Of a DNA stretch of 46,275 nucleotides, positions 7,892-28,154 are shown one piece after another (position 1 is the stretch's first letter; each line of letters opens with the position of its first letter). Position numbers and translations under genes: made by a program. Source of the stretch: Sphingomonadaceae bacterium (GTDB lineage: Bacteria; Chloroflexota; UBA6077); NCBI GenBank assembly GCA_050261575.1, contig JBLNDL010000040.1, positions 1-46,275 on the forward strand, in the 5' to 3' direction. Under the pieces are notes generated by a model, which was not told the DNA's origin, made no database searches, and saw nothing but the letters and a program-made list of their open reading frames with translations.

Positions 7892-7975
7892 TGGGTTGGG
7901 AGAGGGCGGCCGAAGCTCTGCATCGAATGCGGCCGAGCGCAGAAGGGTGGGGTAGATGGCCACCCCACCCTCTTA

Positions 7976-10946: not shown

Positions 10947-10953
10947 GAGGAGC

Positions 10954-10988
10954 CCTGAGTCCTGTGTGGTGTCCACACAGGACTCAGG
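10954..10988. repeat. 16-bp perfect hairpin in the intergenic region
   Basis: CCTGAGTCCTGTGTGG-TGT-CCACACAGGACTCAGG with no U-tract. Confidence 0.7.
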
Positions 10989-11012
10989 ACACAGGACTCG
11001 GGAGGGAGAGAG

Positions 11013-12826: not shown

Positions 12827-14155
12827 ATGAAACGTTGCCGGTTACCGTTGACCCTTGCCCTCGGGGCCGTGTTGGCCCTGGCAGTGGCGGGCTGCGGCAC
12901 CGCACAACGGGGGTTGGAAGCGAACCCCCTGGCCACGACGTGGAGTATCGTCTCCCGGTTGGCTAGCGGAACCACCGACGAGAAAAGCAGCAACGGTAAG
13001 GCAGACACCCCCGCTGGCTGGCAGGCGGGAGACAGGTCTGGCAGCGCTGACAAGCCCAACTTCCTCAGCACTCGCGGTAGCAAGATCGTCGATGCCAATG
13101 GCAAGGAAGTGAAGATCACCGGCGTCAACTGGTTCGGATTGGAGACCGGCACGTTCGCCCCCCACGGGCTGTGGTCCAGAAACTGGGAGGAGATGCTGGA
13201 CCAGATCGCCGAGCTCGGCTTCAACACCATCCGTCTCCCCTACTCCAACCAGGCACTCGACCCCAGTAGCAAGGTTGGCGAAGGGGTGGACTTCAAGATC
13301 AATCCGGACCTGCAGGGCCTCACCGGCCTCGAGGTGATGGACAAGATCGTGGAGGGCGCGGGCAAGCGCGGCATCAAGGTCATCCTGGACCGGCACCGGC
13401 CGGACGTCAACTCCCAGTCGAAGCTGTGGTACACCGACCACCTGTCCGAGGATCGGTGGATCGCCGACTGGGTGATGCTGGCCAAGCGCTACAAGGGCAA
13501 CGACACCGTGATCGGCGCCGACCTCCACAACGAACCCGCCGGTGATGCCACCTGGGGCTCCGGCGATCCCAGGACGGACTGGCGGATGGCTGCGGAGAAG
13601 GCTGGAAACGCTATCCACGAGGTGAACCCCGACTGGCTGATCATCGTCGAGGGCATCGAGAAGGTGGGCGACAAGGACTGGTACTGGATGGGCGGCAACC
13701 TGAGCAAGGCGGGCGAGTCCCCCGTGAGGCTGAAGGTACCAAACAAACTCGTCTACAGCGCCCACGACTACGGCCCGGGGGTCTACTGGCAGGGGTGGTT
13801 CAAGGATGAGAGCTTCCCCGCCAACATGCCCACCGTCTGGGAGAGCCACTGGGGCTACCTTGCCAAGCAGGGCATCGCGCCCGTGCTGCTCGGCGAGTTC
13901 GGCGGCCGCTCCGTCGGCTCCGACACGGAGGGCGTCTGGCAGCGAAGCCTGATGGACTACCTGAAGGCGAACGGCATCAGCTACACCTACTGGTCGCTGA
14001 ACCCCAACTCCGGCGACACGGGCGGCATCCTTGCCGACGACTGGAAATCGGTCAACGACAGCAAGATGTCGGTGCTGTCCAACTACCAGGACAAGATGAT
14101 GCGAGTGGCGAGGCCCACTCAGATGGATCTCACCGCGGCTCCCAAGGCGAAGTAG
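12827..14155 (+). CDS. GH5 endoglucanase-like lipoprotein
   Basis: Lipobox LAVAGC. GH5 motifs GVNWFGLET, PHGLW, LDRHRP, DLHNEP (acid/base), SAHDYG, LGEFGG (nucleophile) and WSLNPNSGDTGG. Confidence 0.93.
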   Translation: MKRCRLPLTLALGAVLALAVAGCGTAQRGLEANPLATTWSIVSRLASGTTDEKSSNGKADTPAGWQAGDRSGSADKPNFLSTRGSKIVDANGKEVKITGVNWFGLETGTFAPHGLWSRNWEEMLDQIAELGFNTIRLPYSNQALDPSSKVGEGVDFKINPDLQGLTGLEVMDKIVEGAGKRGIKVILDRHRPDVNSQSKLWYTDHLSEDRWIADWVMLAKRYKGNDTVIGADLHNEPAGDATWGSGDPRTDWRMAAEKAGNAIHEVNPDWLIIVEGIEKVGDKDWYWMGGNLSKAGESPVRLKVPNKLVYSAHDYGPGVYWQGWFKDESFPANMPTVWESHWGYLAKQGIAPVLLGEFGGRSVGSDTEGVWQRSLMDYLKANGISYTYWSLNPNSGDTGGILADDWKSVNDSKMSVLSNYQDKMMRVARPTQMDLTAAPKAK

Positions 14156-14166
14156 GCAGACGTTGC

Positions 14167-14199
14167 TGGGGCGGGCCTGAGACCCGCCCCACGCCTTTT
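14167..14199 (+). terminator. Probable terminator between convergent genes
   Basis: TGGGGCGGG...CCCGCCCCA stem followed by a T-run. Confidence 0.6.
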
Positions 14200-14208
14200 C
14201 CTGGCACC

Positions 14209-14694
14209 CTACCGCGCGACGACCCTGAACGTCGCCGCTTGCAGATCCTCCCCGTAGCTCTTCCCGCTCTCCTGTCCCGTCACCCGCACCCGCAGCGTGT
14301 ACTCCCCCTCGGGGAGATCTCCGGGCACCCTCCACTCCCAGTAGACGGCCCTCGCCTCCTCGACCGGCGCCCTAAAGCCGGACTGGCTCATCACCAGCAC
14401 GGGGCTCCCCTGGGATTGCCCCACCACCTCCACGCGAGCCGCCAGCGCCTCCTGCACCTCCGTAGAGGCACGGAAGGTCGTCACCAGCGTGACCCTGTCC
14501 AGATGCTCCACCGGACTCGGGGTCACAGTGGCTGTTATGTCCAACTGTGGGACCGTGGAAACCGCGGGCGCCCCACCGGTCCAATCCGTGCGCGCCAGGG
14601 GCGCCCTCATCACCGCCACGAGCATCCCCATCATCAGCAGTGCGAACCCCAAGGTTAAACCCACCGACCTGTTGCCAGCGATGGCCGTTGTCAT
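14209..14694 (-). CDS. Membrane-anchored protein with one beta-sandwich (Ig-like) domain
   Basis: N-terminal hydrophobic helix; beta-rich C-terminus with WRVPGDLPEGEYTLRVRV. GGGAGAG RBS. Confidence 0.75.
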   Translation of the reverse strand: MTTAIAGNRSVGLTLGFALLMMGMLVAVMRAPLARTDWTGGAPAVSTVPQLDITATVTPSPVEHLDRVTLVTTFRASTEVQEALAARVEVVGQSQGSPVLVMSQSGFRAPVEEARAVYWEWRVPGDLPEGEYTLRVRVTGQESGKSYGEDLQAATFRVVAR

Positions 14695-14738
14695 CTTCTC
14701 TCCCAAAGTCTAGTGTTCTGTCGGCTCGAACACGAAAT

Positions 14739-14832
14739 GTAGGGCAGGCCCTCTTGCCCTGCCGCCCGGTTCTTCGGCTACGTGTATGACGGTCCTGGAG
14801 GCGCCCCGGGGGGGGACGAGGCCCTGCCCTAC
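14739..14832. repeat. GTAG-family REP doublet (REPIN-like)
   Basis: GTAGGGCAGGCC... and ...GGCCCTGCCCTAC in inverted orientation. Related units at 147-158, 34294-34531, 41999 and ~42650. Confidence 0.65.
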
Positions 14833-14841
14833 TCCATCCTG

Positions 14842-15501
14842 CTACTGCGACAGTGGTATCTGCCAGCTAACCTCCGGCAGTTGCGGCGGGTGTCCCGCCT
14901 TCACAGTCAGGTAGCGGGAGTCCTGGTCGAGCGGCCCCGCGAAGTAGGCCCTGGCCAGACGAGTCCCCTGCTGCGGGTCCAGCTTCACGATGCCATCGAA
15001 CTCGACCCATCGCAACTCGAACCGCCTGCCCTGGCCGTCGACGACCGAGAGGTCCGTGGCGGGCGAGAAGGAGAACACGACTCCGCGGCTCGAGCGGTTG
15101 CTGAGCAGCAAGACCACCTCGACTCCACCCTGTTCCCGATTGACGTCGACGTTATCCAGAGACAGCGACAGCCCGGCACCGACCGACTGCTCCTGTGGAA
15201 AGGATCCTCGCGAGGCCGGAGGCGGAGTGGATGTCGGGCCGGGCATCTCCTCCGCCGGCGCGGCGGACGGCTCCGCCCGGCCATCCGCCCCCTCACCTCC
15301 GGCATGATCGACAGATGTAGCAAAGGCTGTGCCAGGAGTGGGGGTCGACGCCAGGGTTGGCAGGGCAGACACCGCACGGGTGGGTTCCGCCTCGGGGCCC
15401 CCGAGCAGGGCCGTCCCGTACCCGATGATGAACCCTCCCAGGATCAGCCCGACAGAGGCGAACAGCGCGAACCACGCCGCGCGCAGATGCCGCTCCTTCA
15501 T
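14842..15501 (-). CDS. Membrane-anchored hypothetical protein with Pro/Thr linker and C-terminal beta domain
   Basis: MKERHLRAAWFALFASVGLILGGFIIG TM segment, P/T/A-rich linker, beta-strand-rich tail. Confidence 0.75.
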   Translation of the reverse strand: MKERHLRAAWFALFASVGLILGGFIIGYGTALLGGPEAEPTRAVSALPTLASTPTPGTAFATSVDHAGGEGADGRAEPSAAPAEEMPGPTSTPPPASRGSFPQEQSVGAGLSLSLDNVDVNREQGGVEVVLLLSNRSSRGVVFSFSPATDLSVVDGQGRRFELRWVEFDGIVKLDPQQGTRLARAYFAGPLDQDSRYLTVKAGHPPQLPEVSWQIPLSQ

Positions 15502-15529
15502 CCCTTCATCCCCTCGCCATTCGTCCCGC

Positions 15530-17206
15530 TCACCGCCTTGCGGGCCGCGCCGTCGGCGTCGCCGCGCCGGGGGTCTCCTCTGGCCGGAACTCCAGCGAAC
15601 CGGGGCTCTCCGGCTCCCCGCCACTCTCTGCAGGAGGGCCGGCGTAGTAGTTGGTTCTGGCCTCTCCGCCGCTATCCCGACCCTTCAACTGGATCGAGGT
15701 CCCCCTCTCGCCCTCGCGGGGGACCTCCATCGAGGGGAACTCCGCGTTCCCCTGCCTGTCCGCCTGCGCGGTGGCGCTAACCTTGTCCCCCGATTGGCCG
15801 AACGCCAGATCCACCTGCTCGCCCACTGCGAAGCCGTGTCCCACCACCACCGTTCCGCCCGAGAGGTCCGGCCTCACCTCGACCCACGGGCTGAGCGGCA
15901 GCACCTTGAAGACCACGCTTGCCTGGGTCCCACTCACCTGGCCCGTCACGCTCAGGGTGAACTCGCCAGGCTCGGCGTCGTGGGGGATCCGTATGGCTCC
16001 GGCATCCGAGAAGTTGCCCTTCTCGTCCGCCCGGAAGGTGGACACCGGCGCCCCCTGGCCGGGCTCGCCGACGTAGGCGTTCACCTCCTCGCCGGCGGCG
16101 AAGCCGTTCCCCACGAATGCCACCTCCGAGCCCGGGGGGCCCGCCCACAGCGTCAACTGCAGCACGCTGGGATAGGGCTGGATGGTGAACTCGACCTCGG
16201 AGGTAGTCTGGCTCTGGTTGCCCACGAACAGCAGCGTCTGCTCCCCCTTCAGTCCGGGGGCCAGCCTCACCGCCCCCGGCGCCTTGAAGGTGCCGTCGTC
16301 GCCTACCTGCACTGCCGCCACCGGACCCGACTCGAGACTGTTGAAGAAGACGTGCACCGTCTCACCGGGAGCGAAGTCGCTGCCGGCGAATCCCACCTGT
16401 TGCTCGGGGCCGGGCGAGTAGTTGTCCAGCACCACCCAGGGATAGAAACCGAGGATGGTCAACCCCACCTCAGCCGGCATCCTGCTCTGGTCACCGTAGA
16501 AGAGGACGGAATGGCTCCCCTCCTGGGCAAAGGGAACGCGCAGCACGCCGGAGATATCCCCCTGGTCGGAGGCCACCGCGACGCTCAAGGGCTGCGTGCC
16601 CAGGTTGTCCAGGTAGACGGCGACGTTCTCCCCCGGCTTGAAGCCTCCAGCCTCGAAGCCGACGGCAGAGTACGGCTTCGTGGTGTCCGAGGTGAGCCTA
16701 CCCCACGTCTGGTCCGACTCCACCCGCACCGACGCCTCCACCGGACCGCCGCCCATGGTGGGGACGGCGACCACGGCGTAGACGCCGGAGGCAAGGTTCT
16801 CGGGCAATGGGAAGGAAGTATCGGCCATCACCCCGTTCTTGTCGGTCACCGCCGTACCCAGTACCAGGGTCGAGTCGTCGTCACCGCCCTCCCCCCGCAG
16901 GGCCAGCTCCAGCTCCTGGTAGGGCTCGAACAACTGTCCGCCGACCACCAGCGGCCCGCCGCGCCTCACCTGTCCGGTTCTCAGCACCAGGAAGGGGCGT
17001 AGCTCCTCCTGCAACTGCTGGGAGCCGATGGTCACGGTCTGCGGGGTTGCCCTGGCCTGGCCGCCCCTGGATGCCGTTCCCGCAGGTGCCGGCCCCGACG
17101 ACTGCCCTCCCAGCGGGCCCAACGACTCGGGCAGTAGCCTCCAGCCCAACAGCAACGCAAAGGCCAGGGCTATCAGCAGCTTTCGGTTCCTCATCATCGC
17201 CATCAT
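15530..17206 (-). CDS. Membrane-anchored protein with ~5 tandem Ig-like repeats
   Basis: Signal/TM segment, then ~90-aa repeats with G.xF.PGE.V.V and AD..G motifs. ATGA overlap with the upstream GT gene. Confidence 0.82.
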   Translation of the reverse strand: MMAMMRNRKLLIALAFALLLGWRLLPESLGPLGGQSSGPAPAGTASRGGQARATPQTVTIGSQQLQEELRPFLVLRTGQVRRGGPLVVGGQLFEPYQELELALRGEGGDDDSTLVLGTAVTDKNGVMADTSFPLPENLASGVYAVVAVPTMGGGPVEASVRVESDQTWGRLTSDTTKPYSAVGFEAGGFKPGENVAVYLDNLGTQPLSVAVASDQGDISGVLRVPFAQEGSHSVLFYGDQSRMPAEVGLTILGFYPWVVLDNYSPGPEQQVGFAGSDFAPGETVHVFFNSLESGPVAAVQVGDDGTFKAPGAVRLAPGLKGEQTLLFVGNQSQTTSEVEFTIQPYPSVLQLTLWAGPPGSEVAFVGNGFAAGEEVNAYVGEPGQGAPVSTFRADEKGNFSDAGAIRIPHDAEPGEFTLSVTGQVSGTQASVVFKVLPLSPWVEVRPDLSGGTVVVGHGFAVGEQVDLAFGQSGDKVSATAQADRQGNAEFPSMEVPREGERGTSIQLKGRDSGGEARTNYYAGPPAESGGEPESPGSLEFRPEETPGAATPTARPARR

Positions 17207-17946
17207 CTGCCCATCAGTACCTGCCGCAGAGGACGGGGCAGCCCAACACCCTCCAGTCGAAGCCGCCACACCGTCAACACGGCCTCCACGAGTATCGCCG
17301 CCGACATCTTCGAGGCCCCCCGGCGCCGTTCGCGGAACTGGATGGGAACCTCCACCACCCGTTTTCCCTTACGGGCGCATCGGAAGGCCATCTCTATTTG
17401 GAAGGAGTAACCGCGCGACCGTACCTCATCCAGACCGAGATCCAGTAGGGCGGAGCGTCGCCAACCCCGGAAGCCCCCCGTGAGATCGCGGATCGGCAGC
17501 CCCAGCACGAGTCCCGCGTATAGGGACCCGCCACGGCTCAGGGCCAGCCGCCAGCCGGGCCAGTCTCTGGTCCCACCTCCAGGGGCATAGCGGGATCCAA
17601 TCACCAGGTCCGCCCCCCGCCGCAGCTCCGCCAGGAGACGGGGCAGATCCGCCGGGTCGTGGGAGAAGTCCGCGTCCATCTGGAACAGGTTGCTGTGCCG
17701 CAGGCGGAGCGCCACGCGGAACCCCTCCAGGTAGGCGGTACCCAGCCCCAGCTTGCCGGGGCGGTGGAGGACCAGGAGTCTGCCCGGATAGCGGTATCGC
17801 AGCCCCTCCGCCAGATCGCCGGTGCCATCGGGAGAGTTGTCGTCCACCACCAACAGGTGAAAGCCCTCCAGGTCCATGATCCTCTCCGCGAGGAGAGGAA
17901 GGTTCTCCGCCTCGTTGTAGGTCGGCATCACCACTATCGACGACAC
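17203..17946 (-). CDS. Polyprenol monophosphomannose synthase-like GT2 (Ppm1/DPM1 family)
   Basis: VMPTYNEAENL, VVDDNSPDGT, GLGTAY, QMDADFSHDP, DLTGGFR and YSFQIEM motifs. Confidence 0.93.
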   Translation of the reverse strand: MSSIVVMPTYNEAENLPLLAERIMDLEGFHLLVVDDNSPDGTGDLAEGLRYRYPGRLLVLHRPGKLGLGTAYLEGFRVALRLRHSNLFQMDADFSHDPADLPRLLAELRRGADLVIGSRYAPGGGTRDWPGWRLALSRGGSLYAGLVLGLPIRDLTGGFRGWRRSALLDLGLDEVRSRGYSFQIEMAFRCARKGKRVVEVPIQFRERRRGASKMSAAILVEAVLTVWRLRLEGVGLPRPLRQVLMGR

Positions 17947-17960
17947 TGTGGATCACCTCC

Positions 17961-19775
17961 TTAGCGCCCAGATTGCTGCCCGCTCCCTGGGGCCACCAGG
18001 ATCGATTCCGCTGGCACCCAGCCCTCCTGGCCGTTCCCCTTGACGCGCAGCCACTGCTGGTTGCCCACGGTTCGACTATCCCCCGTTATCTCCACCGTGG
18101 TGCCAGGCTCCAACCTGATCTTGACGGAGTTGGAGTTGGCAGGGTCGCTTAGAAGCCCCACCTCACCAGCCCCTCCCGCCACCTCTCCTGAGCGGCCACC
18201 CTGCCGGGCTGCGGCGGGCGTGCTCTGGGGGGTGGGGGTGACCCTGGGCGTCGGCCTCGGCTGCGGGGTACCCTGCAGCGAAGTCCGATTCCCAGAGGGC
18301 GTCGGCGCCGGAGGAGCGGGCCTGGCGGTAGACTCGTCAGGGCTGCTCTCCTGATCGTCGTAGGGACAACGGAACTCCGGCTCAGGCTGGGCAGCGGCCT
18401 GGAGAGGCACGCCGGCATCCATCACCTCCACGGTGGTGTTGGCCACAGCCTTGCTGCGGCTGCCCACCGCCTGGAACTCGAGCTGTCCGGCCTCGGCGGT
18501 CGGCGGGATTGTGTAGGATCCCCCCGCGCCGATCTGCCCCACGTCGTCCGCCTTGGCGCACGCTACCTCCTTGCCGGGGCTGTCCTGGGTGCGCTCCACG
18601 TAGAAGCGCACCACCTCATCCCGGGCAAAGCCCTCCCCGTAGAAGGTGATGGTCGTACCGGGCCGGCCTCCGTAGGTGCTGGGCTGCACGTTCGGAGTGT
18701 ACGGAAGGACGTCGAACCCGGCCGTTGCCGTGGCCTGGCTCTTCTCCCCCACGAAGATCAGGGTGTTCTTCCCTGTCAACTGGAAGGGGATGACGAAGGC
18801 CCCCGCGTTGTCGAAGCTGCCGTCGTCCGCGGTTCTCACCTTCAGGATGGGTGGGGCCTGCGGGTTGTTCAGGTGCACCGCAACCTCCTCGTCGGGCCCG
18901 AACCCCTTCCCAGAGAAGGAGACGGCGGTATCGGCCTTGGTCGCGTAGCTGCTCAAGGCCACGTCGGGGTAGAGGCTGAGCATCAGGAACTGCACCGTGA
19001 CCGGCGCCATGCTCTGATCCCCCACGAAGATGAGGGAGTTGTTCCCCACCGGACCGTAGGGGATACGGATGCTCTGCTTCTCGATGGTCCCTCCGTCGCT
19101 GGCGTTGAAGGTCTGGAACGGGTCGCCGCCCAGGCTGTTGAAGTAGACCTTTACCTCCTCACCGGGCAGGAACCCCTGAGCTGAGACCTGGACCTGGTCG
19201 CCCACAACCCCCACACCGGTCCCCAGCTTGACGCTCGGCCTCATCGTCTCCAGCCGGCCCGTGGCCTGGGCCTCCTTGTCGCTGTCCCTCTGCCGAGCGA
19301 TCACCGTGAAGGTGGAAGCCCGGTAGTTGGGAGGGAGGCTGAATCCGAAGCCGCCGAAGCTGCCGCCAGAGTCTGCCTGCGCAAAGCCCAGGTTTTGGGG
19401 TTTCGGGTCGTTCCTCGGGTCCGACGTCAGGTAGAAGTCTATGACCGACGCCGGATCGAAGCCCGAGCCGTTGACGGCGACGTTGGAACCGGCCGTGGCG
19501 CTGGCCGGATTGAGAAGTATGAAGGCGTCCTTTCGGATGCTCTCCTCGTCGAGGGAGTCGACGGAGATCGAATCAGGCGTAGCCGTAGCCTGCTCGGCGC
19601 CACCTTCTCGCCCGGCACTCTGGTCCCTCGTGGCAGCGCCCTGGGACTGCGACCTCGACGAACCGTCCAGCGACAGCAGGCCGCTGGCCCCCCCGCCGAG
19701 ACCCTGCCGGGCTACCAGCAGCGCCGCCCCCACGACCACCAGGGCCAGCACCGGGATTATCCTCCTTGCGGACAT
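17961..19775 (-). CDS. Membrane-anchored protein with 4 Ig-like repeats, Pro/Thr linker and C-terminal bacterial SH3 domain
   Basis: Repeats GSGFDP, QGFLPGEEV, KGFGPDEEV and EGFARDEVV; PTPRVTPTP linker; SH3b-like LEPGTTVEI...WLRVK.NGQEGWV. Confidence 0.82.
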   Translation of the reverse strand: MSARRIIPVLALVVVGAALLVARQGLGGGASGLLSLDGSSRSQSQGAATRDQSAGREGGAEQATATPDSISVDSLDEESIRKDAFILLNPASATAGSNVAVNGSGFDPASVIDFYLTSDPRNDPKPQNLGFAQADSGGSFGGFGFSLPPNYRASTFTVIARQRDSDKEAQATGRLETMRPSVKLGTGVGVVGDQVQVSAQGFLPGEEVKVYFNSLGGDPFQTFNASDGGTIEKQSIRIPYGPVGNNSLIFVGDQSMAPVTVQFLMLSLYPDVALSSYATKADTAVSFSGKGFGPDEEVAVHLNNPQAPPILKVRTADDGSFDNAGAFVIPFQLTGKNTLIFVGEKSQATATAGFDVLPYTPNVQPSTYGGRPGTTITFYGEGFARDEVVRFYVERTQDSPGKEVACAKADDVGQIGAGGSYTIPPTAEAGQLEFQAVGSRSKAVANTTVEVMDAGVPLQAAAQPEPEFRCPYDDQESSPDESTARPAPPAPTPSGNRTSLQGTPQPRPTPRVTPTPQSTPAAARQGGRSGEVAGGAGEVGLLSDPANSNSVKIRLEPGTTVEITGDSRTVGNQQWLRVKGNGQEGWVPAESILVAPGSGQQSGR

Positions 19776-19788
19776 CTTGATTCCTCCT

Positions 19789-21330
19789 CTACTTGACCAC
19801 CTTGCGGATCTGTAGCTGAACGTCTCCGTCGGCGAAGGCGGCCACCAGGCGTGAGTTGGCGTAGATCTCCAGGGGCAACGTCTCGTTTGCCTCTTTGAAC
19901 CTGGTCAGAAGCTTGTTGGACATGATCAGGTAGTCCACACGCCGCCAGTCGTTGTTCAGAGCCTGCACCTGCACGGCAGGATCCTGGGCCACCTTCCAGT
20001 GAGAGTGGGCCCGAGGGAAGATCGGCCTCTCGCCGTCCGGCTCGTGGAGATCGACCCACAGGTCGTCGTCCATCACCAGGATCGACGAGTTGGGGATGTT
20101 CTCCTGAACCCAGGTCAACTGCTGCGCCTGAAGCTGCGTGAAGTCGATCAGGTAGTGGTCTCGAGCGGTGTAGATGAACACCGCTATCAGCGCGATCGCT
20201 CCCAGGCCGAGGGCGGGCATCCCGAGCACCGCCGGCAGCCTGCCCGCGACCAGCCCAACCGCCAGGCCAAAGTTCATGGCCAGGAAGGGCAGAAGCGGCA
20301 CGATGTAGAACTCCAGCACCACGCTGCCCCGAGCCAGATAGAAGGCGAATGAGACGGCCAGCAGGCCCGCGACGACGTAGGACCGCCTGCGCAGCAGGTA
20401 GCCGACCGCCAGGTTAACGGCCGTCCCGGCCGTTCCTGCCACGATGATGATCGAGTCCTTGGTCCACCACTTGGTCCAGAAGAAGGACCAGAACTGGCTG
20501 TAGGGATCCAAGATGCTGCCCCCCGACCTCTGCATCTGCCACCCGATGGTGCCGATCAAGGACACGTGCTCCGCCGGGGCCCCGCTGACCAGGAAGCTCA
20601 CCTCCGCGGGCAGCAGCTCGCTCTTCAGCAGGGCGTAAAGCGGGTAGACAGAGACCACCATCACCGTGGCGAACGCCCACCCCCAGGCGGCAAACCGCTT
20701 CAGGTGGGCCTCCTGGAGCGACTTGAACAGCATGTAGGCCATCACTGGCAGGAAGAATACGGCGTTCTCCTTCGTAAGGATGGCGACCCCCAGGGTGGCG
20801 CCGCTGGCCAGCACCTTGAGCAGCCGCGATCGATGGTGCAAGATGAGATAGAGCGATAGCAGCAGCCAGAAGACCATGATGTTGTCCAGCAGGACCATCC
20901 GCTGGTAGTACACCGACAGCGGCGACAGGGAGAAGGTCAGGGTGGCCACGACGGAGGCCAGCAGGCTCCCAGACAGGGTCATGGTCACCTTGAACAGCAG
21001 AACCAACGACACCAGATGGAGGACCAGCATCAGCACCCGCCCACTCCCTATGGCTATCCCAAAGGTGTAGAAGCCCTTGGGAAGCAGCAGGGTCCAGGCT
21101 GCCTGCAGCAGCCAGCCCGCCGGGGCATGGTCGTAGAAGTAGGTGTAGGGGGCCAGCCTGCCCAACCTGAGCACCGACCAGGCCTGGGCGGTGTATATCC
21201 CCTCGTCGCCCAGATAGAGGGGGTATCCGAACATGTTGAAGGCGTGGGAGATCAGGGCGGCGATGCCCACAACCCACAGCAGCCCCCGCTCCCCCACCCG
21301 CTGCAGCAGGAACTCGACATCTCTGTTCAT
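19789..21330 (-). CDS. GT-C fold glycosyltransferase (PMT/ArnT-like, GT39/83-type)
   Basis: Start at ATG 21330. GDEGIY (DE motif), YDHAPAGW, LLDNI and LTKE motifs; many TM helices. Confidence 0.88.
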   Translation of the reverse strand: MNRDVEFLLQRVGERGLLWVVGIAALISHAFNMFGYPLYLGDEGIYTAQAWSVLRLGRLAPYTYFYDHAPAGWLLQAAWTLLLPKGFYTFGIAIGSGRVLMLVLHLVSLVLLFKVTMTLSGSLLASVVATLTFSLSPLSVYYQRMVLLDNIMVFWLLLSLYLILHHRSRLLKVLASGATLGVAILTKENAVFFLPVMAYMLFKSLQEAHLKRFAAWGWAFATVMVVSVYPLYALLKSELLPAEVSFLVSGAPAEHVSLIGTIGWQMQRSGGSILDPYSQFWSFFWTKWWTKDSIIIVAGTAGTAVNLAVGYLLRRRSYVVAGLLAVSFAFYLARGSVVLEFYIVPLLPFLAMNFGLAVGLVAGRLPAVLGMPALGLGAIALIAVFIYTARDHYLIDFTQLQAQQLTWVQENIPNSSILVMDDDLWVDLHEPDGERPIFPRAHSHWKVAQDPAVQVQALNNDWRRVDYLIMSNKLLTRFKEANETLPLEIYANSRLVAAFADGDVQLQIRKVVK

Positions 21331-22610
21331 CACGCCGCCTTCTCGCCCTGGTCTGCCCGGTGGGCACCCACATGCTGAGTCTTCTCCCAGTTGGAGATGC
21401 CCCGGACCTCGCGCACGAAGGCCCGGAAGGCCGCGTAGGCCAGCAGCCACTGGTAGGGCAGGTAGGCCAGGGCCATGGCCAGCGGCGTCTTCCAGGTGGG
21501 GTTCAGCTTGTGGGCGTCGGTGAACTCGAACAGACCGACGACCGACATGAAGAAGTGGCTCACAAGCAGATAGGCGGGAAGCAACAGTACGATGGCCTGA
21601 GCCACCGGAACCTTGGTGGTGAACATCATCCAGAGGGACACGGGAACGTACAGCGCCAACAACGCCTGGGCCGTGGGGAAGCCCAGGGTGTAAGCTGCCA
21701 TCAACCGCTGCTTCCAGCTTGGTAGCCTCATCCAATCCCCCTTGCGGAGGGTCTGGAGAAACCCCTGGCTCCAACGAGTCCGCTGCTTGACGAAGTGGGC
21801 CAGGGTGGGAGGAGTCTCCTCCCTGGTCACGTACTCGTCGTCGTAGACGATCCGCACCGGCTCCTCCATGGCCGAGAGTCGAATGCCGATGTCGGCGTCC
21901 TCCGTGAGGTTGTGCTCGTCCCACCCGCCGATCTGCTCGATCACCTCCCTGGCGAAGAAGATGGTATTGCCCCCCAGGGGCGTGACTCCCAACTGAGCAT
22001 GGTAGTGCAGCCGCGACTTGAACCAGAAGAAGTACTCCAGGACGTTCAGGGCCGAGTACCAGGAGCTGTCGTAGTTCATCAGTTGCACGCCACACTGCAC
22101 CACGCGAACCCCTTCCTGCAGCATCACCGTGTTGACGATGTTGAATATGTCCGGATGGATCTCGTCCTCGGCATCGAAGATGGTCACCACCTCGGCTGAA
22201 GAGTGGGCCAATCCCCTGTTCAGACCATGCGGCTTATTGATCGGAAGGTCGTCGAACAGCACCAGCCGCACGTCGGCGATCCCCTCCGCCCGCAGTTGCG
22301 CGATCTTCTCCTCCACCTTGGCGATGGTGCCGTGATCGGTGTGCTCGCAGATCACCAACACCTCCATCAAGGAGCGGGGGTAGCGTGCCCTCACCACCCT
22401 ATCGATGGTGTCCTGGATCACCTCTTCCTCGTGGCGCGCGGGCAGCAGCACCGTGAAGGACTTCTCTGGCGCCCTGAAGCTCTCCGGAGCCCGAGATCTC
22501 CTGTATGCCTCCGGCCGGTCCCAGGTGTAGATCATGATGTAGGCGGTATGGGCGGCCTGCAGCGTGAGCAGGATAGACAGGAGCGTGATCGCAACGAGGA
22601 ACAGGGTCAC
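21330..22610 (-). CDS. Processive-type GT2 glycan synthase (cellulose-synthase-like)
   Basis: LLPARHEE, NKPHGLN, FDAED, LTEDAD and QRTRW form the D,D,D,QxxRW set; flanking TM helices. GTG start overlaps the GtrA stop codon. Confidence 0.9.
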   Translation of the reverse strand: MTLFLVAITLLSILLTLQAAHTAYIMIYTWDRPEAYRRSRAPESFRAPEKSFTVLLPARHEEEVIQDTIDRVVRARYPRSLMEVLVICEHTDHGTIAKVEEKIAQLRAEGIADVRLVLFDDLPINKPHGLNRGLAHSSAEVVTIFDAEDEIHPDIFNIVNTVMLQEGVRVVQCGVQLMNYDSSWYSALNVLEYFFWFKSRLHYHAQLGVTPLGGNTIFFAREVIEQIGGWDEHNLTEDADIGIRLSAMEEPVRIVYDDEYVTREETPPTLAHFVKQRTRWSQGFLQTLRKGDWMRLPSWKQRLMAAYTLGFPTAQALLALYVPVSLWMMFTTKVPVAQAIVLLLPAYLLVSHFFMSVVGLFEFTDAHKLNPTWKTPLAMALAYLPYQWLLAYAAFRAFVREVRGISNWEKTQHVGAHRADQGEKAA

Positions 22611-23005
22611 GGCTCCCACCCCCAGGTCCAGAGCAGGCTGGTGGTGAAGTTCCAGGCCATGGCCAGCGCTATCCCCACCAGGTTTGCCAGCAGGTAGTGG
22701 AAGCCCGCGAAGGACACCAGCAGATACAGCACGCCGGAGGTGATCAGGAGCCCACCCAGCGAGGTGAGGTTGAACTTCCCTAGCCGCGCGAGTGAGAAGC
22801 CGGACGCACCAAAAGTCCACCGCTCGTTCCAGGCAAAGTTGTGGAGGATGGCAACCTCTACCGCCAGCGGGGATGCCACCAGGAGGGGCAAACCGGCAAT
22901 CCCGTGGGTGACGAACAGCACCACACTGTTCACCACCACGCCCAGGGCCCCGACTATCCCGAAGCGAACTAACCGGGGCCAGATCAGATCCCGACTTCGC
23001 TTCAT
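22607..23005 (-). CDS. GtrA family lipid-linked sugar flippase
   Basis: RFGIVGALGVVVN, HNFAWNERWTF and WNF motifs; four TM helices. The start could instead be GTG 23020. Confidence 0.9.
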   Translation of the reverse strand: MKRSRDLIWPRLVRFGIVGALGVVVNSVVLFVTHGIAGLPLLVASPLAVEVAILHNFAWNERWTFGASGFSLARLGKFNLTSLGGLLITSGVLYLLVSFAGFHYLLANLVGIALAMAWNFTTSLLWTWGWEP

Positions 23006-23134
23006 CGCATTCCATCCCACACCTGTCGCTGTGCGGTCCGGCGCTTCCTGGCGCTACAGCGATGGATCGGGGGCGCACAGCCGTGTCACATCACCACCGG
23101 CCGGCGGGCCTCCTCGGAAAGGCAGGGAGGGGAT

Positions 23135-23149
23135 GCAAGGTATAGGCCA
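23135..23149 (-). promoter_or_regulatory. Sigma54-type -24/-12 promoter for the gtrA-GT operon
   Basis: Minus strand TGGCCTATACCTTGC(A) fits GG-N10-GC. Confidence 0.6.
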
Positions 23150-23182
23150 CCCGCTCCGCGGGGAAGGGGGGGTGCCATACCC

Positions 23183-24916
23183 CTATTGCGGCTCTCGCCC
23201 CCACACGAGCTTCCCGTCCTCGTAGACGGTGATCCTGTCCGAGACCCGGTAGCCGGTGGCCTCGGGCCAGAAGCTGTGGTCGTTTGCCTGGTCGAACTGG
23301 GACCAATCGCTGGCGTGGATGCGGAGTAGGATATCCCCCGTGGAGCCGTATGGCGGGAGCACGTTGTCTTGCCCGGGGAAAGTCACCTTCAGGTAGTGGT
23401 CCTGCCTGCCTTTCTCCGTCCGCACCAACTCCGCCTTCACGCGATCCTCTCCCAGTGCGGCGAAGTCCACCTCTACTTGAGGCTCGCTGGGCCGGGAGCC
23501 GTGGGAGAACCAGTAGCGCACCTCGAATCGAGTGAGATCCAGTGGCTGCCCATCGCGGTCCACGATCTGCAGGGCAAACGATATCGAGTTGGTCTTCGGG
23601 GAGGTCTCGTTGGCTCTGTAGAGCAACTCCAACCTCCCATCGGAGGTGGGTCCGGATTGGCCCTGCCTGGGTTCCGCCAGCGGCGGGGCGAGGTATTCCC
23701 GATACACCTGCTGCTTGTCCGATACCACGGTCAGCCAATCGTCACCCAGCAGCCCCCCGGTATCGCCCGAGTTCGGGTTGAGGGACCAGGCGAAGTAGCT
23801 CACCCCGGTCCCCTGAAGATAGTCCAGGAGAGAACGCTGCCACACCCCCTCGGCGTCGGTCAGATCCACCGACCTGCCCCCGAACTCCCCGACGATCACG
23901 GGGGCGATCCCCTCCTCTTGCAGGTAGCCCCAGTGGGAACGCCACACCCAGGGGAGGTTACGCGGGAAGTCGGGGGAGCTGAACCACCCCTGCCAGTAGA
24001 CCCCAGGGCCGTAGTCGTGCGCGCTGTACACCAGGCGCCCCGGCTGCGCGAGTTGGACTGGGTGGTCCCGTGCACCCGTCAGGTTGCCCCCCCACCAGTA
24101 CCAGTCGCCGCCGTACTGCTCCACGCCCTGAACCAAGATCAGCAGGTACGGATTGGCTTCCAGGACGGCGTTCCCAGCCTTCTCGGCGGCGATCCGCCAG
24201 TCCGTGGCGGGATCGCCCGTACCCCAGGTGGCCGGTCCCTTCGGCTCGTTATGCAGATCGACACCTATCACGGTGTCGTTGGCCCTGTAGCGCTGGGCCA
24301 GCATCACCCAGTCGGCGATCCACCGATCCTCGCTCACCTCGTCTGTGTACCAAAGATCGGACTGGCCGGCGCTGGTAGGCCGATGTCGGTCTAGCACCAC
24401 CTTCAGCCCCCTCTCGCCGGCACCCTGAACGATCAGATCCAGCACCTCCAGCGAGGTGAGCCCGGCCAGGTCCGGGTTCACCTGGTAGTTGATCCCCTGG
24501 GGCATCTGCCCCGGAACCAGCGCCTCGTTGGATAAGGGTATCCGGATGGCGTTGTAGCCCAGCCTGGCGATCTGATCCAGGATGCCCTTCCAGTTGCGGC
24601 TCCAGAGGCCGTGGGGCACGAAAGTGCCGGTCTCCATGCCGAACCAGTTGAGGCCGGTGATGCGCACCTCCCGGCCGTTGGAGTCGTAGAGTCTGCTGCC
24701 GCAGCTATGGAGATAGTTCAGCGGACGTCCCTCGGCGTCGACGGCGGGAGGCACCGGCGCGGGGTCCGCGATGCATTGGGTGGGGGCGGGCGGACGCCGG
24801 TCGACGATCCTCCTGGGCGAGGGAGCGCCCACCATCAACCACCACCAGACGCCGGCCACGAGAGCGAGGATCAGCACCCACCTCAGCCGTTTGAGCAGCC
24901 TGAGTCCTTCCTCCAT
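23183..24916 (-). CDS. Membrane-anchored GH5 endoglucanase with C-terminal CBM3
   Basis: N-terminal TM; GH5 motifs DLHNEP and VGEFGG; CBM3 signature VRYWFS...DHYLKVTF...RIHASDWSQFDQANDHSF...ITVYEDGKLVWGREP. The start may be CTG 24898. Confidence 0.92.
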   Translation of the reverse strand: MEEGLRLLKRLRWVLILALVAGVWWWLMVGAPSPRRIVDRRPPAPTQCIADPAPVPPAVDAEGRPLNYLHSCGSRLYDSNGREVRITGLNWFGMETGTFVPHGLWSRNWKGILDQIARLGYNAIRIPLSNEALVPGQMPQGINYQVNPDLAGLTSLEVLDLIVQGAGERGLKVVLDRHRPTSAGQSDLWYTDEVSEDRWIADWVMLAQRYRANDTVIGVDLHNEPKGPATWGTGDPATDWRIAAEKAGNAVLEANPYLLILVQGVEQYGGDWYWWGGNLTGARDHPVQLAQPGRLVYSAHDYGPGVYWQGWFSSPDFPRNLPWVWRSHWGYLQEEGIAPVIVGEFGGRSVDLTDAEGVWQRSLLDYLQGTGVSYFAWSLNPNSGDTGGLLGDDWLTVVSDKQQVYREYLAPPLAEPRQGQSGPTSDGRLELLYRANETSPKTNSISFALQIVDRDGQPLDLTRFEVRYWFSHGSRPSEPQVEVDFAALGEDRVKAELVRTEKGRQDHYLKVTFPGQDNVLPPYGSTGDILLRIHASDWSQFDQANDHSFWPEATGYRVSDRITVYEDGKLVWGREPQ

Positions 24917-24933
24917 AGGTTGGGCGGCGAGAA

Positions 24934-24948
24934 GCAAAGGTTATGCCA
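24934..24948 (-). promoter_or_regulatory. Sigma54-type promoter for the GH5-CBM3 gene
   Basis: Minus strand TGGCATAACCTTTGC(T). Confidence 0.72.
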
Positions 24949-25014
24949 CTCGGGGTCCGGACGCGGGGACACAGCGACGCGGAAACGGTGGCCGGGGGTA
25001 CGGGGAGGAAAAGG

Positions 25015-25029
25015 TGGCACGTCCGCTGC
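25015..25029 (+). promoter_or_regulatory. Sigma54-type promoter for the divergent GH5-like gene
   Basis: TGGCACGTCCGCTGC fits GG-N10-GC. Confidence 0.62.
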
Positions 25030-25134
25030 CTCCATCCCACTCGATCCTCCGATGGGGGGTGATCGCCCCTGCCTGGCCGCAGCGAGTTGCGGCCAGGCAG
25101 GCAATTCGCTCACGAGACGAGGGGGTGGAAGATC

Positions 25135-26613
25135 GTGAACTGGCGGAGCCTAATCCTGCTCGGCGCCCTGGCCCTGGCGATGATCGCGGTGCCGGTGGCA
25201 CGCATGCTTCTCCCCAGGCCACCTGACCGGCTGCCCACCGCCGCGGGATACCGTTTCCTCGCAGGGGTCAACTACCCCTGGAAGTCCTATCAGGACTTCG
25301 GCTCCGGCGCCTGGGGCCATTCCGGCGTCAGCAGCCCCGGGGTGTTCGACGAGATAGACACGGACATGGCCAACGTGGCAGCAACCGGGATCCAGGTAGT
25401 GAAGTGGCGTGTCTTCAACGACGGCAGGTTCAGTCCGGACTTCATGGAGGACGGGTCCGTCAGCGGACTGGACGAACAGTTCTTCCACGATCTCGACGCC
25501 GCGCTCGAGATCGCGGCGCGTCACGACCTCTACCTGGTGCTCAGCCTCATAGACAGCGGCTTCTGGGCCACCCAGTGCAGCCTCAACGGCGTCCAGATGG
25601 GCGGCCACATCGACCTGATGAGCGACCCGGCCAAGCACCGGTCGCTGATCCAGAAGGCGATCGTCCCGTTGGTGGAGCGGGCCAAGTGGAGCGGACGGGT
25701 GATCGCCTACGAGGTGATCGCCGAGCCCGAGTGGGGCATCACGGAGCTGCACACCGAGGACGATGGCCGCCAGACCGTGCCGCTGGCCGACGTGCGGGAC
25801 TTCGTGGCGGAGGCCACCACAGCCATCCACCGACACGGTGGGCGGCTTGTGACGGTGGAGTCGAACCGCCCGACTCACATGCAGTACTGGAAGGACCTGG
25901 GGCTGGACTACTTCACCTTCAGTTGGTACGACTGGATGGAGCCCTACGATCCCCTAGACGTGCCCGCCGCCAGCTACGGCCTCGATCGCCCGGTCGTGCT
26001 GGGCGAGTATCCCATCGAGGGCTCACAGCACTACAGCTTCTCCCAGGTGATGGACATCGCCCTGCGGCAGGGCTACGCAGGGGCCTTCGCCTGGAGCTAC
26101 GGGGCCTCGGATAAGTACGGCTCCCTCAGAAACGTCCACGATCGCTACGCTCAGTGGTTGGCCGACCACTGGCAGGTGGCGGACCTCTCCGGAGGTCGCA
26201 TCGCTCCCCCTTCGGCCCCCATCGCCTTCCAGCCGCCGCCCTTCGCCTACCAGAGCGTGCGGCTCGCCAAGGACACCGCCGGGCTCACCGCCGACGTGGG
26301 GCTGTCGGTGAGAGAGGGGGGAACCTTCCACCTCCAGGCATACCTCTACCCCAGGAACGGCCAGCCCGACAGCCCCGTGGCGGACCGGACCCTGGCGCTG
26401 CAGAGCGGGGCTCAGGGGACCGTCCACATGACGTTGCCGGATGTGCCGCAGGGTGAGATCTACAAGCTGAGCATGGCCATCTTCGACGAGAACTGGACGA
26501 TCAGGAAGTGGTTCGACTCCATCTACACCTTCGTCGTGGAGAACGGGGAGGTGGCCCGGCCGTCTCTGACCGACCTGGAGACCGAAAACCCCTGCGCCAA
26601 ACCCAAGCAGTAG
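25135..26613 (+). CDS. Membrane-anchored clan GH-A (GH5-like, mannanase-type) hydrolase with C-terminal beta domain
   Basis: GVNYPW..YQDFG, YEVIAEPEW (acid/base), VLGEYP (nucleophile) and GYAGAFAWS motifs. N-terminal TM; GTG start at 25135. Confidence 0.8.
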   Translation: MNWRSLILLGALALAMIAVPVARMLLPRPPDRLPTAAGYRFLAGVNYPWKSYQDFGSGAWGHSGVSSPGVFDEIDTDMANVAATGIQVVKWRVFNDGRFSPDFMEDGSVSGLDEQFFHDLDAALEIAARHDLYLVLSLIDSGFWATQCSLNGVQMGGHIDLMSDPAKHRSLIQKAIVPLVERAKWSGRVIAYEVIAEPEWGITELHTEDDGRQTVPLADVRDFVAEATTAIHRHGGRLVTVESNRPTHMQYWKDLGLDYFTFSWYDWMEPYDPLDVPAASYGLDRPVVLGEYPIEGSQHYSFSQVMDIALRQGYAGAFAWSYGASDKYGSLRNVHDRYAQWLADHWQVADLSGGRIAPPSAPIAFQPPPFAYQSVRLAKDTAGLTADVGLSVREGGTFHLQAYLYPRNGQPDSPVADRTLALQSGAQGTVHMTLPDVPQGEIYKLSMAIFDENWTIRKWFDSIYTFVVENGEVARPSLTDLETENPCAKPKQ

Positions 26614-26615
26614 CA

Positions 26616-26711
26616 CCTCTCTCCCTTTAGGAGAGGCACATCTTTTCCCTCTCTCTGGGAGAGGTGCGGGGTGAGGTCCCTCACCCTAACCCTCTCCCAC
26701 GTGGAGAGGGA
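26616..26711. repeat. CCCTCTCCC/GGGAGAGG-type palindromic repeats between convergent genes
   Basis: CCTCTCTCCCTTTAGGAGAGG, CCCTCTCTCTGGGAGAGG..GGGGTGAGG and CCCTCACCCTAACCCTCTCCCACGTGGAGAGGG. Confidence 0.65.
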
Positions 26712-26727
26712 ATCTCCCGTCCCCCAG

Positions 26728-28053
26728 TCACGGTGCCGGCAGCTCCTCCTGGAAGGGCTCCACGATCTTGAACGTGGCCGTTGCCTGAGTCCCACTGCTC
26801 TCGCCCACCACCACTAGCGTCACCTGGCCCGCAGCATCGGTGGGCGTCGTGACCGGACCCAGCCCGCGGTAGGAGCCATCGAGGGCCGCGACACCTTCCG
26901 CAACCACCTGCCCACCCGCTTCGCCCAGGTGCAGGGTGATCCTCTCCCCCGCCGCGAAGCCCCCGCCGCTGGCGGTGACGGGGCTGCCCGCGAAGCCCGA
27001 GTAGCTGCTCAACTCCAGCCAGGGGTTGGCGCCCACCACGTTGTACTCCGCCACCGCCGTCGCTCCGCTGCTCCTGCCCCGCAGCCCCACCACGAGTGCA
27101 CCGCTCTTGGAGTCGGGCGGGACGTCGATCGGCCCGGCGCCCCATACGCCGCCGTATTGATCTGCCCTGTAGGTGGAGACGGCAGCCGTGGCGCTGCCCA
27201 GCAGCAACTCCACCTCCTCGTTGGGCAGGAAGCCCTTGGCGTTCACGTCGAAGCTGCTGCCCGGAAGCCCCGACCAGGGACTCAACTCCATCTGGGGCTG
27301 CAGAGGCTCGATGGTGATCGCCGTGCTCAGCGGCTTCTCCGTCGCCTCCCCCTTCAGCACCAGATTGTACTCGCCGGGCGGCAACACGGGGATCTCCACC
27401 TCCGTCCAACTGGTGTTGCCGACGTCGTCGGCGGTTGCGGTGGCTAGGGCCTGCTCGGCGGCCACGCTGGTGCCGTCGCCCTGCGTGATAAACGCACTGA
27501 CCCGGTCCCCCGGCTCGAACCCTCCGGCGACGAAGCCCAATCGTCCAGCCGGAAGGTGGTTGTAGCTATTGAGGTTCGCCCAGAGATCCTTGGCGCGAAT
27601 GTGGAGGGTGCCCCCGGCGCTTGTCCCGCTTCTGCCGCCCACCGCCTGAACAGTGCGGTTGCCCGACTCCAGCCAGCTCGGGAGCTGCACCCTGGCATCC
27701 GAGATCCTACCCTCGCCGTCGGCAGTCGCCTGACCTATCTCCTCGGGCTCGCCGTCGTGGTCCACCAGGAGGCTCACCGTCTCCCCGGGCTCGAAGCCCT
27801 CTGCAGAGAAGGTGAAGTGCTCCCATTGAGTGGTCGTCCCGGAAGGCAGGGTGAGGACGGCCGCAGGCTTCGATTCTGGGGTAGGCTGGGCGGATTCCGC
27901 TTGCCTGTCGTCCGCGCCGCCCTCCTGCCTCGTGACAGGCGCCGAGTCATCGCGGCCGACGAAGCCGCCCAACCCGGCGTTCAGTCTGGCGGTCAGGCCA
28001 ACCACCAGCAGGAGCACGCCCGCGACCACCAGCCATCGTCTGCTCGAGTTCAT
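26728..28053 (-). CDS. Membrane-anchored protein with 4 Ig-like repeats (third paralog)
   Basis: TM segment, then repeats EGFEPGETV, GGFEPGDRV, KGFLPNEEV and GGFAAGERI. Confidence 0.82.
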   Translation of the reverse strand: MNSSRRWLVVAGVLLLVVGLTARLNAGLGGFVGRDDSAPVTRQEGGADDRQAESAQPTPESKPAAVLTLPSGTTTQWEHFTFSAEGFEPGETVSLLVDHDGEPEEIGQATADGEGRISDARVQLPSWLESGNRTVQAVGGRSGTSAGGTLHIRAKDLWANLNSYNHLPAGRLGFVAGGFEPGDRVSAFITQGDGTSVAAEQALATATADDVGNTSWTEVEIPVLPPGEYNLVLKGEATEKPLSTAITIEPLQPQMELSPWSGLPGSSFDVNAKGFLPNEEVELLLGSATAAVSTYRADQYGGVWGAGPIDVPPDSKSGALVVGLRGRSSGATAVAEYNVVGANPWLELSSYSGFAGSPVTASGGGFAAGERITLHLGEAGGQVVAEGVAALDGSYRGLGPVTTPTDAAGQVTLVVVGESSGTQATATFKIVEPFQEELPAP

Positions 28054-28139
28054 CACCTTCGATGCTCCCGACGGTCAGATTGGAAGCCTTCCAGGTGATC
28101 GAGAGCCCCCCCGGAAGGCGCACGGTCGGGTGGAGGCGG

Positions 28140-28154
28140 GCAAGAGGTATGCCA
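28140..28154 (-). promoter_or_regulatory. Sigma54-type promoter for the 26728-28053 gene
   Basis: Minus strand (C)TGGCATACCTCTTGC. Confidence 0.72.

Follow-up and report, generated by a model that had tools for sequence, protein, structure and literature searches.

We analysed a 46,275-nucleotide stretch of a Chloroflexota metagenome-assembled genome (contig JBLNDL010000040.1 of assembly GCA_050261575.1; hereafter the window) and describe within it a locus of about 15 kb (12827-28154) that centres on a membrane GT2 synthase and a GT-C fold glycosyltransferase. With moderate confidence, we read this locus as a synthase-dependent β-1,4-glucan system in which an active GT-C enzyme, as co-subunit of the synthase, decorates the polymer from a polyprenyl-phosphate hexose, and in which tethered endoglucanases trim the product. 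The pairing of synthase and GT-C recurs in two phyla, the two proteins are predicted to form a complex, and cellulase-family genes of three families lie beside them.

The window is ~65% G+C; hence we picked open reading frames (ORFs) by GC content at codon positions and cross-checked the calls against Pfam, NCBIfam and PDB. All 12 genes that an earlier sequence-only reading had listed for the locus were located where it placed them, and codon-position GC together with database matches bore out this content. The minus-strand genes run, in transcription order, from a GH5 endoglucanase with a CBM3 module (GH5-CBM3) through GtrA, the GT2 synthase, GT-C, an immunoglobulin-like (Ig) repeat protein with an SH3 domain (Ig4-SH3), a second GT2 resembling dolichol-phosphate-mannose synthase (DPMS-like GT2, or Ppm1-like in the earlier wording) and another Ig-repeat protein (Ig5) to two small proteins. 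Overlapping stop and start codons had also been noted from the letters alone, and we found three of them, each of 4 nt, at GtrA/GT2, GT2/GT-C and DPMS-like GT2/Ig5.

A cellulose-synthase-like GT2 and its predicted GT-C partner

The GT2 synthase (21330-22610, minus strand; 426 aa; PF13641, E 5e-35; PF13632) has the make-up of a BcsA-type enzyme: a GT-A domain with DxD, TED and QxxRW motifs, plus membrane helices. This very 426-aa product is already on record. The D,D,D,QxxRW signature that had been read off the translation held up, with DAEDE, TEDAD and QRTRW invariant in an alignment of 14 orthologues. When PDB sequences were searched with a profile of the family, BcsA was the top match (E 1.2e-12), its TEDAE aligning to TEDAD and its QRGRW to QRTRW. 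The structure model (predicted local distance difference test, pLDDT, 82; predicted template modelling score, pTM, 0.83) likewise found BcsA first in a fold search (4p00_A, E 2.1e-15, query-based template modelling score TMq 0.65), followed by E. coli BcsA, PcManGT and hyaluronan synthases. In the published BcsA mechanism, the TED aspartate serves as catalytic base when the acceptor is a sugar hydroxyl; with a polyprenyl-phosphate acceptor, such a base is not needed. Sequence and fold together support the prediction that this GT2 is cellulose-synthase-like and of the processive type.

We tried and rejected other names for the GT2. As a poly-N-acetylglucosamine (PNAG) synthase of the PgaC/IcaA kind it scored 74.5 bits against the NCBIfam TIGR03937 cut-off of 422.3, and Pfam found no deacetylase domain at the locus. 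Scores for NodC, HpnI and XrtP-associated glycosyltransferases all fell far under their NCBIfam cut-offs, and the JGI name "XagB" is a mere similarity label.

Frame analysis places the start ATG of GT-C (19789-21333, minus strand; 514 aa) at 21333, overlapping the GT2 stop codon, an arrangement by which GT-C is predicted to be translationally coupled to the synthase. Its Pfam matches exceed the gathering scores, which places it with PMT (GT39), but they are weak and domain-level only (PMT, 33.2 bits against a cut-off of 22.7; PMT_2, 34.1 against 26.1). By sequence it matched nothing in PDB or NCBIfam and was placed by fold search only. With the structure model (pLDDT 81; pTM 0.85) as query, Foldseek returned ArnT (5f15, E 6.5e-7), the oligosaccharyltransferases AglB, STT3 and PglB (archaeal, eukaryotic and bacterial), ALG12 and Pmt4. 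The ArnT/PMT/oligosaccharyltransferase class is recognised by a GT-C fold of many helices and by an acidic motif in the first external loop, and both are present here. Across 21 orthologues, D43-E44-G45 in that loop is invariant and the motifs YDHAPxGW and TKEN are conserved; because of this conservation the enzyme is probably active, and it looks like one that uses a lipid-linked sugar as donor.

Candidate sources of such a donor are encoded in the same run of genes. The small membrane protein GtrA (22607-23020, minus strand; 137 aa) belongs to its family by Pfam (PF04138, E 1.8e-26). The DPMS-like GT2 (17203-17946, minus strand; 247 aa; PF00535, E 5.6e-26) resembles polyprenyl-phosphate hexose synthases and consists of the catalytic domain only; its best PDB match is the Pyrococcus dolichol-phosphate-mannose synthase 5mlz (E 1.3e-33), followed by ArnC (E 9e-8). 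The window thus holds together the components of a three-component GtrA-dependent glycosylation system, namely GtrA, a polyprenyl-phosphate-sugar synthase-like GT2 and a GT-C enzyme.

We co-folded GT2 and GT-C with a separate alignment for each chain, in three runs and with 3 controls. The pair reached a complex score of 0.82 (0.81-0.82 across the runs), and the best of the controls scored 0.00; 116 of 157 solved complexes and 2 of 215 mismatched pairs attain the score mark applied, counts that are rough since self-made alignments were used. Contact agreement between the runs was 100% and partner pLDDT was at least 86. In the model, GT2 residues 24-36 and 329-362 contact GT-C residues 58, 169-172 and 208-237, and the interface contains residues that never vary in the alignments (W30 and E362 of GT2; R213 and F214 of GT-C). 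We know of no solved GT2:GT-C complex, so it seems unlikely that the high score stems from a memorised structure. The modelling supports binding of GT2 to GT-C.

A conserved core shared by two phyla

The nearest GT2 homologues bear the source name "Chloroflexota bacterium". Orthologues at E <=1e-160 occur in 10 of 40 relatives, a set that includes the unpublished genome G037, with a weak match only. Sampling Chloroflexota evenly, we found an orthologue in 38 of 401 genomes (two unpublished genomes, G244 and G075, are part of this tally), or 30 of 218 genera, a patchy distribution. A scan of named genomes yielded 80 loci, some of which share contigs with the loci of 9 relatives. They come from Ktedonobacterales, Chloroflexia, Roseiflexaceae, Chloroflexaceae and Thermomicrobiales, and from Actinomycetota, where the GT2 is 57-65% identical and the carriers comprise 26 Streptomyces loci plus Micromonosporaceae, Actinopolymorpha, Nocardioidaceae and Streptosporangiaceae.

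Neighbourhoods were counted by tblastn with the window proteins and by ORF mapping. The GT2-GT-C pair is present in 9/9 relatives' loci. Among the 72 loci whose downstream sequence extends for 1.7 kb or more, GT-C directly follows GT2 in 66 by a strict gap criterion and in 70 when four extended ORFs are counted; in these four (L049, L054, L061 and L084) the GT-C ORF begins at the GT2 stop codon and has a long N-terminal extension. The other two are L033, which gave no GT-C match, and L041, where the match lies ~5 kb upstream of GT2. Other genes recur at different rates over the 80 loci: Ig-repeat proteins in 57, GtrA in 56, GH5 in 46, GH6 in 28, GH8 in 18, the DPMS-like GT2 in 14, the small anchored proteins in 4 and the GH5-like protein in 3. 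Where GtrA is matched it mostly lies directly upstream of GT2, and where an Ig-repeat protein is matched it is mostly an Ig4-SH3 homologue following GT-C, in Streptomyces too.

The conserved core is therefore smaller than 15 kb, consisting of GtrA, GT2, GT-C, an Ig-repeat protein and a cellulase-family hydrolase nearby. The sequence-only reading had proposed that the gene set would co-occur in other genomes, and it does recur across two phyla; as a unit of ~15 kb the proposal stands for the core and fails for the DPMS-like GT2, the small anchored proteins and the GH5-like protein. Its related idea of a complete set of loader, GtrA and GT-C fits the window, where all three are encoded, and fits the relatives less well, given the counts for the loader and for GtrA.

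A complete genome, that of S. iranensis, shows the order MreB-like gene, extracytoplasmic function (ECF) sigma factor and anti-sigma factor, GH5, GH6, subtilase, GtrA, GT2, GT-C, Ig-repeat gene, sensor kinase and response regulator. The flanks of this locus (L039:197-9200 and 14684-19409) thus hold an MreB-like protein, an ECF sigma factor with zf-HC2 anti-sigma proteins, a subtilase of family S8 and a PAS sensor kinase/LuxR pair. Used as a tblastn query, the S8 protein is matched in 23 of 45 fully flanked loci. Such neighbours suggest that the cassette may be under envelope-stress or developmental control.

A quick maximum-likelihood search on 83 GT2 sequences gave a tree whose branch support comes from the Shimodaira-Hasegawa-like approximate likelihood ratio test (SH-aLRT); the midpoint root fell on the branch of the paralogues described below. 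Of 41 actinobacterial rows, 40 form one clade (support 100) within a larger clade (98) that also contains Ktedonobacterales and other Chloroflexota. Lineages in which GH8 is fused to GT-C branch outside this larger clade. One tentative reading of the tree is a single transfer of the cassette from Chloroflexota to Actinomycetota. The sole actinobacterial row outside the main clade, from an Actinomycetota metagenome-assembled genome (L097), groups with Chloroflexia-type rows and has a long branch (0.55); mis-binning or an independent transfer could explain it.

Cellulase-family hydrolases accompany the pair

The window encodes two true GH5 enzymes. The first is a lipoprotein (12827-14155, plus strand; 442 aa; PF00150, E 1e-56) with the lipobox LAVAGC at its N-terminus; the second, GH5-CBM3 (23183-24937, minus strand; 584 aa; PF00150, E 6.7e-50; CBM_3, E 1.6e-8), carries a hydrophobic N-terminus, so that both are membrane-tethered. 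In PDB, GH5-CBM3 matched Acidothermus endocellulase E1 best (1ece, E 4.8e-125), and its CBM3 region matched several CBM3 modules with E down to 2.5e-24. The acid/base motif NEP lies at 235 and 230 in the two enzymes and the nucleophile motif GEF at 356 and 350; by similarity and by these motifs, both are E1-like endo-β-1,4-glucanases.

The third glycosidase-like gene, divergently transcribed, encodes a 508-aa GH5-like protein (25087-26613, plus strand). It gave no Pfam match, its PDB matches are animal GH5 β-1,4-mannanases (E 7e-15 to 9e-14), and it has AEP in place of the NEP of GH5.

Glucanases are a near-constant feature of the relatives. Forty-five loci are flanked by 9 kb or more in both directions, and 44 of these carry GH5 (37), GH6 (23), GH8 (6) or the GH5-like gene (1) within 10 kb. 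A GH8 domain adjoins GT-C without a break in 14 loci of the Chloroflexia type, and Pfam placed PMT and Glyco_hydro_8 in a single ORF of 864-991 aa in 4/4 of those tested; in four actinobacterial loci GH8 is a gene of its own. Three β-1,4-glucanase families have thus been recruited to the cassette, and the family varies by lineage. GH5 of the E1-like kind, GH6 and GH8 share β-1,4-glucan as substrate. This recruitment, with the fusion of GH8 at the outer end of GT-C, is our main argument that the product contains β-1,4-glucan and that the cellulases are part of the machine. Of all the claims in the sequence-only reading, the one that gained most is that the cellulases serve biosynthesis rather than nutrition. 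It had also remarked on the lack of a sugar ABC transporter and a β-glucosidase, and a Pfam scan of 33 window ORFs indeed found neither.

A paralogous operon in Streptomyces

A GT2 profile run against 301 sampled Streptomyces species separated two classes of match: orthologues in 7 (E ~1e-212 to 1e-217) and a second class in 106 (E ~1e-118 to 1e-129). In 3/3 loci examined (L102, positions 4401-11061, L103 and L104; genomes G637, G487 and G429), the second class is an operon of a GT2 43% identical to ours, a GT-C, a DPMS-like GT2::GtrA fusion and a GlxA-like galactose/glyoxal oxidase of 814 aa. Our full-text searches turned up no description of this operon. The combination of GT2, GT-C and lipid-sugar loader is thus a design that recurs, and here it is linked to the type of oxidase that partners CslA.

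Ig-repeat proteins, small proteins and flanking genes

The Ig-like repeats of the locus recur about every 90 aa. Ig4-SH3 (17961-19775, minus strand; 604 aa) is N-terminally anchored and combines such repeats with a proline/threonine-rich (P/T-rich) linker and a C-terminal SH3 domain (SH3_3/SH3_4, E 1.7e-5); a TIG match stayed below threshold. Its structural neighbours in the ESM Atlas are generic SH3 and TIG/Big Ig-like proteins, all <0.9. Another neighbour there is a 621-aa Chloroflexota protein cluster with GT2 Pfam domains (query TM 0.38, below the 0.5 mark for a shared fold), which may be a GT2 fused to Ig-like repeats. Ig5 (15530-17206, minus strand; 558 aa) was recognised by its repeat motif; it has an N-terminal anchor or signal and weak MG2 and GxPGS matches. 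A third Ig-like repeat protein (26728-28056, minus strand; 442 aa), also N-terminally anchored, has four repeats ~90 aa apart and by tblastn is 25-31% identical to homologues of the other two.

The two small proteins at the end of the run both begin with a hydrophobic segment. The 165-aa protein (14209-14706, minus strand), an ORF supported by GC at third codon positions, gave only a sub-threshold CBM_48 match (E 0.007). The 219-aa protein (14842-15501, minus strand), counted from M42 of its ORF, adds a P/T-rich stretch and found no match in Pfam or NCBIfam. Homologues of the 219-aa protein occur as tandem pairs in the 4 loci that have them. We considered that the two might be paralogues and rejected this, as they share no mutual similarity.

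The locus is surrounded by housekeeping genes, including those for IMPDH and SHMT. In the interval 29721-32815, just past SHMT, a 424-aa ORF without a Pfam match overlaps the start of a gene for a DUF2207 membrane protein (30827-32815). At a distance of 10 kb from the locus lie a GntR/FCD regulator (155-904, minus strand) and a GH130 β-mannoside phosphorylase-family gene (2050-3222, plus strand). In combination with the mannanase-like GH5-like gene, they may point to mannoside metabolism, whose connection with the cassette is hypothetical.

Proposed mechanism and alternative explanations

From the computed gene content, neighbourhoods, folds, motifs and interface we infer a glucan product, its decoration during synthesis, the sugar transferred, the acceptor of GT-C and the role of the Ig-repeat proteins. 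In the mechanism that we propose for a surface glucan, built by a core of two membrane enzymes, the BcsA-like GT2 would polymerise β-1,4-glucan from a nucleotide sugar at the cytoplasmic face and extrude the chain. GT-C, translationally coupled on the same mRNA, would dock on the transmembrane helices of the synthase and add hexose branches, likely mannose or glucose, to the emerging chain. The DPMS-like GT2 would synthesise the polyprenyl-phosphate sugar donor, with GtrA handling it. Outside the membrane, the tethered GH5s (the lipoprotein and the anchored GH5-CBM3) would cut or release the polymer, and the anchored Ig-repeat proteins may guide or hold it at the wall.

Several considerations count against this proposal. 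Non-processive enzymes that glycosylate lipids, glucosylceramide synthase for one, share the D,D,D,QxxRW signature. BcsA has 8 membrane helices; the GT2 model has only ~4-5, so that a self-sufficient channel is not assured. By tblastn, the DPMS-like GT2 was not found in 66 of the 80 loci, nor GtrA in 24, which means that the donor pathway at many loci must be encoded elsewhere. The loci are mutually related and not independent trials, 26 of the 80 being from Streptomyces. GH5, GH6 and GH8 may, by analogy, open the wall rather than cut the product: according to passages of PMC11022532, CslZ is active on peptidoglycan and chitin as well and may make a passage through the wall. Furthermore, the roles given here to all members of the cassette are predictions.

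A different division of labour would make GT-C a PMT-like O-hexosyltransferase that acts on the P/T-rich Ig proteins and the tethered GH5s, with GT2 producing a separate glucan or glycolipid and being merely co-regulated. PMT and PMT_2 are the sole Pfam families that GT-C matches, its fold matches include Pmt4 and oligosaccharyltransferases, the P/T-rich linker of Ig4-SH3 is long, and in most of the loci with an Ig match the Ig-repeat gene comes after GT-C. We nevertheless regard protein glycosylation as unlikely. In all 14 loci with GT-C::GH8, tblastn detected no Ig-repeat gene and no P/T-rich partner gene was detectable, but the GT2-GT-C pair is kept, which argues that the Ig protein is not an obligatory acceptor; the complex model puts GT-C on the synthase; and a glucanase fused to the outer end of GT-C points to a glycan as the shared substrate. 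It is also rather improbable, in our estimate, that GT2 extends a polyprenyl-phosphate-linked sugar and GT-C then moves the block to a wall polymer or protein in the manner of a ligase or oligosaccharyltransferase. The order GtrA-GT2-GT-C mirrors that of gtrA-gtrB-gtrC operons, oligosaccharyltransferases rank among the best fold matches of GT-C, and at some loci (such as L081, L082 and L088) GT2 and GT-C::GH8 stand alone, neither GtrA nor a DPMS-like gene being matched within 10 kb. Moreover, when the single GT2 sequence was searched against PDB, the non-polymerising PcManGT, a mannosyltransferase by its PDB title, came first (E 1.2e-12) and BcsA second (E 2e-6), a ranking that also tells against a glucan synthase. 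Yet the family profile puts BcsA first, and neither TED nor QxxRW varies among the orthologues. The donor enzyme that is encoded resembles a monosaccharide loader, and in the paralogous operon it is fused to GtrA right after GT-C, which fits transfer of single sugars. Endoglucanases, for their part, require several contiguous β-1,4-glucose units, implying long chains.

The neighbours might also be coincidental, the GH5s being nutritional cellulases beside an envelope-glycosylation operon and the 15 kb not one unit. The genes for the GH5 lipoprotein and the GH5-like protein do lie on the strand opposite to the operon, E1-type GH5s are classical secreted cellulases by their PDB titles, and accessory genes differ between loci. 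We consider coincidence very improbable: a cellulase-family gene within 10 kb in all but one of the fully flanked loci of two phyla, a hydrolase family that changes with lineage and is in part fused to GT-C, membrane tethers on both window GH5s and a window without transporter or β-glucosidase genes by Pfam all speak against it. What probability remains beyond the decorated-glucan system and these alternatives belongs to something else.

Relation to known systems and significance

We found no description of the cassette in the full-text literature, subscription-only papers and supplements lying outside its coverage. The earlier remark that the gene set departs from the bcs, pga/ica and cslA-glxA layouts agrees with this and with the domain and score comparisons. 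Bcs systems resemble the cassette in having a BcsA-fold catalytic subunit with DxD, TED and QxxRW and a dedicated endoglucanase; in the Chloroflexia relatives this glucanase is a GH8, the Pfam family to which BcsZ belongs. E. coli BcsA is also found with a bound lipid-dependent modifier, the PDB title of 9fmz being a BcsA:phosphoethanolamine (pEtN)-transferase complex, which provides a precedent for a lipid-dependent modifying enzyme on a cellulose synthase. The cassette differs from Bcs in a GT2 that has ~4-5 predicted helices, ends after the last of them at residue 426 and lacks a PilZ domain, in its GT-C partner and in window glucanases of family GH5; Pfam found no PilZ, BcsB or BcsC match in any protein of the locus.

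Clostridial Ccs is a Gram-positive synthase-dependent cellulose system whose hydrolase, CcsZ, is of the GH5 rather than the GH8 type; to our knowledge, it comprises no GT-C, GtrA or Ig-repeat proteins. CslZ of the CslA system belongs to GH6, the family also carried by the Streptomyces copies of the cassette, and the hosts in both cases are filamentous soil bacteria. Passages of PMC11022532 describe in CslA-GlxA-CslZ-LpmP a synthase translationally coupled to a membrane-anchored complex partner, with a glucanase gene adjoining, much as here, and give CslA seven predicted membrane helices against the ~4-5 of our GT2 model. Unlike in that system, the partner in the cassette is a GT-C enzyme and not a copper radical oxidase, and a GlxA-like tblastn query gave 0 matches in 80 loci. 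The examples GtrA/GtrB/GtrC, CsbB/GtcA/YfhO and ArnC/ArnT represent three-component glycosylation. The components present in the window correspond to the outline of such systems in the introduction of PMC13390465, but in the cassette the module is joined to a polymer synthase, and the place of gtrB is taken by a BcsA-like GT2 that has TED and QxxRW. We set aside as a match the GtrA-dependent gsf cluster of Actinoplanes, for which the same paper (PMC13390465) lists a stealth protein, a UDP-N-acetylmannosamine (UDP-ManNAc) dehydrogenase, a GT28 and a transmembrane glycosyltransferase that, according to its authors, is without a GT-C fold.

According to passages of PMC11022532, cellulose-type synthases each pair their GT2 with a different, non-homologous partner, BcsB, GlxA or CcsB, the last a functional homologue of BcsB. 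By analogy, the cassette fits a pattern of core synthase, non-homologous membrane partner and glucanase, the partner here being a putative GT-C enzyme. A bolder extension, which we put forward only tentatively and hold to be possible rather than probable, is that it represents a further class of cellulose-synthase complex. An obligatory, active GT-C would branch the nascent β-1,4-glucan, as the chain emerges, with hexose from a polyprenyl-phosphate donor, and the resulting polymer of the wall or matrix would be akin to hemicellulose; a single transfer would have brought the cassette from Ktedonobacteria-like Chloroflexota to actinomycetes; and a sister version, coupled to a GlxA-like oxidase, would occur in about one-third of the Streptomyces species sampled.

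Strain-collection titles suggest that some carriers are culturable, among them S. iranensis DSM 41954, S. sparsogenes ATCC 25498 and Actinopolymorpha alba DSM 45243. If the proposal is true, intramembrane polymerisation and lipid-linked decoration on the outside would be joined in one complex. The named carriers include many filamentous soil bacteria, which would make the cassette a candidate determinant of the hyphal or filament surface, of pellet formation and of adhesion.

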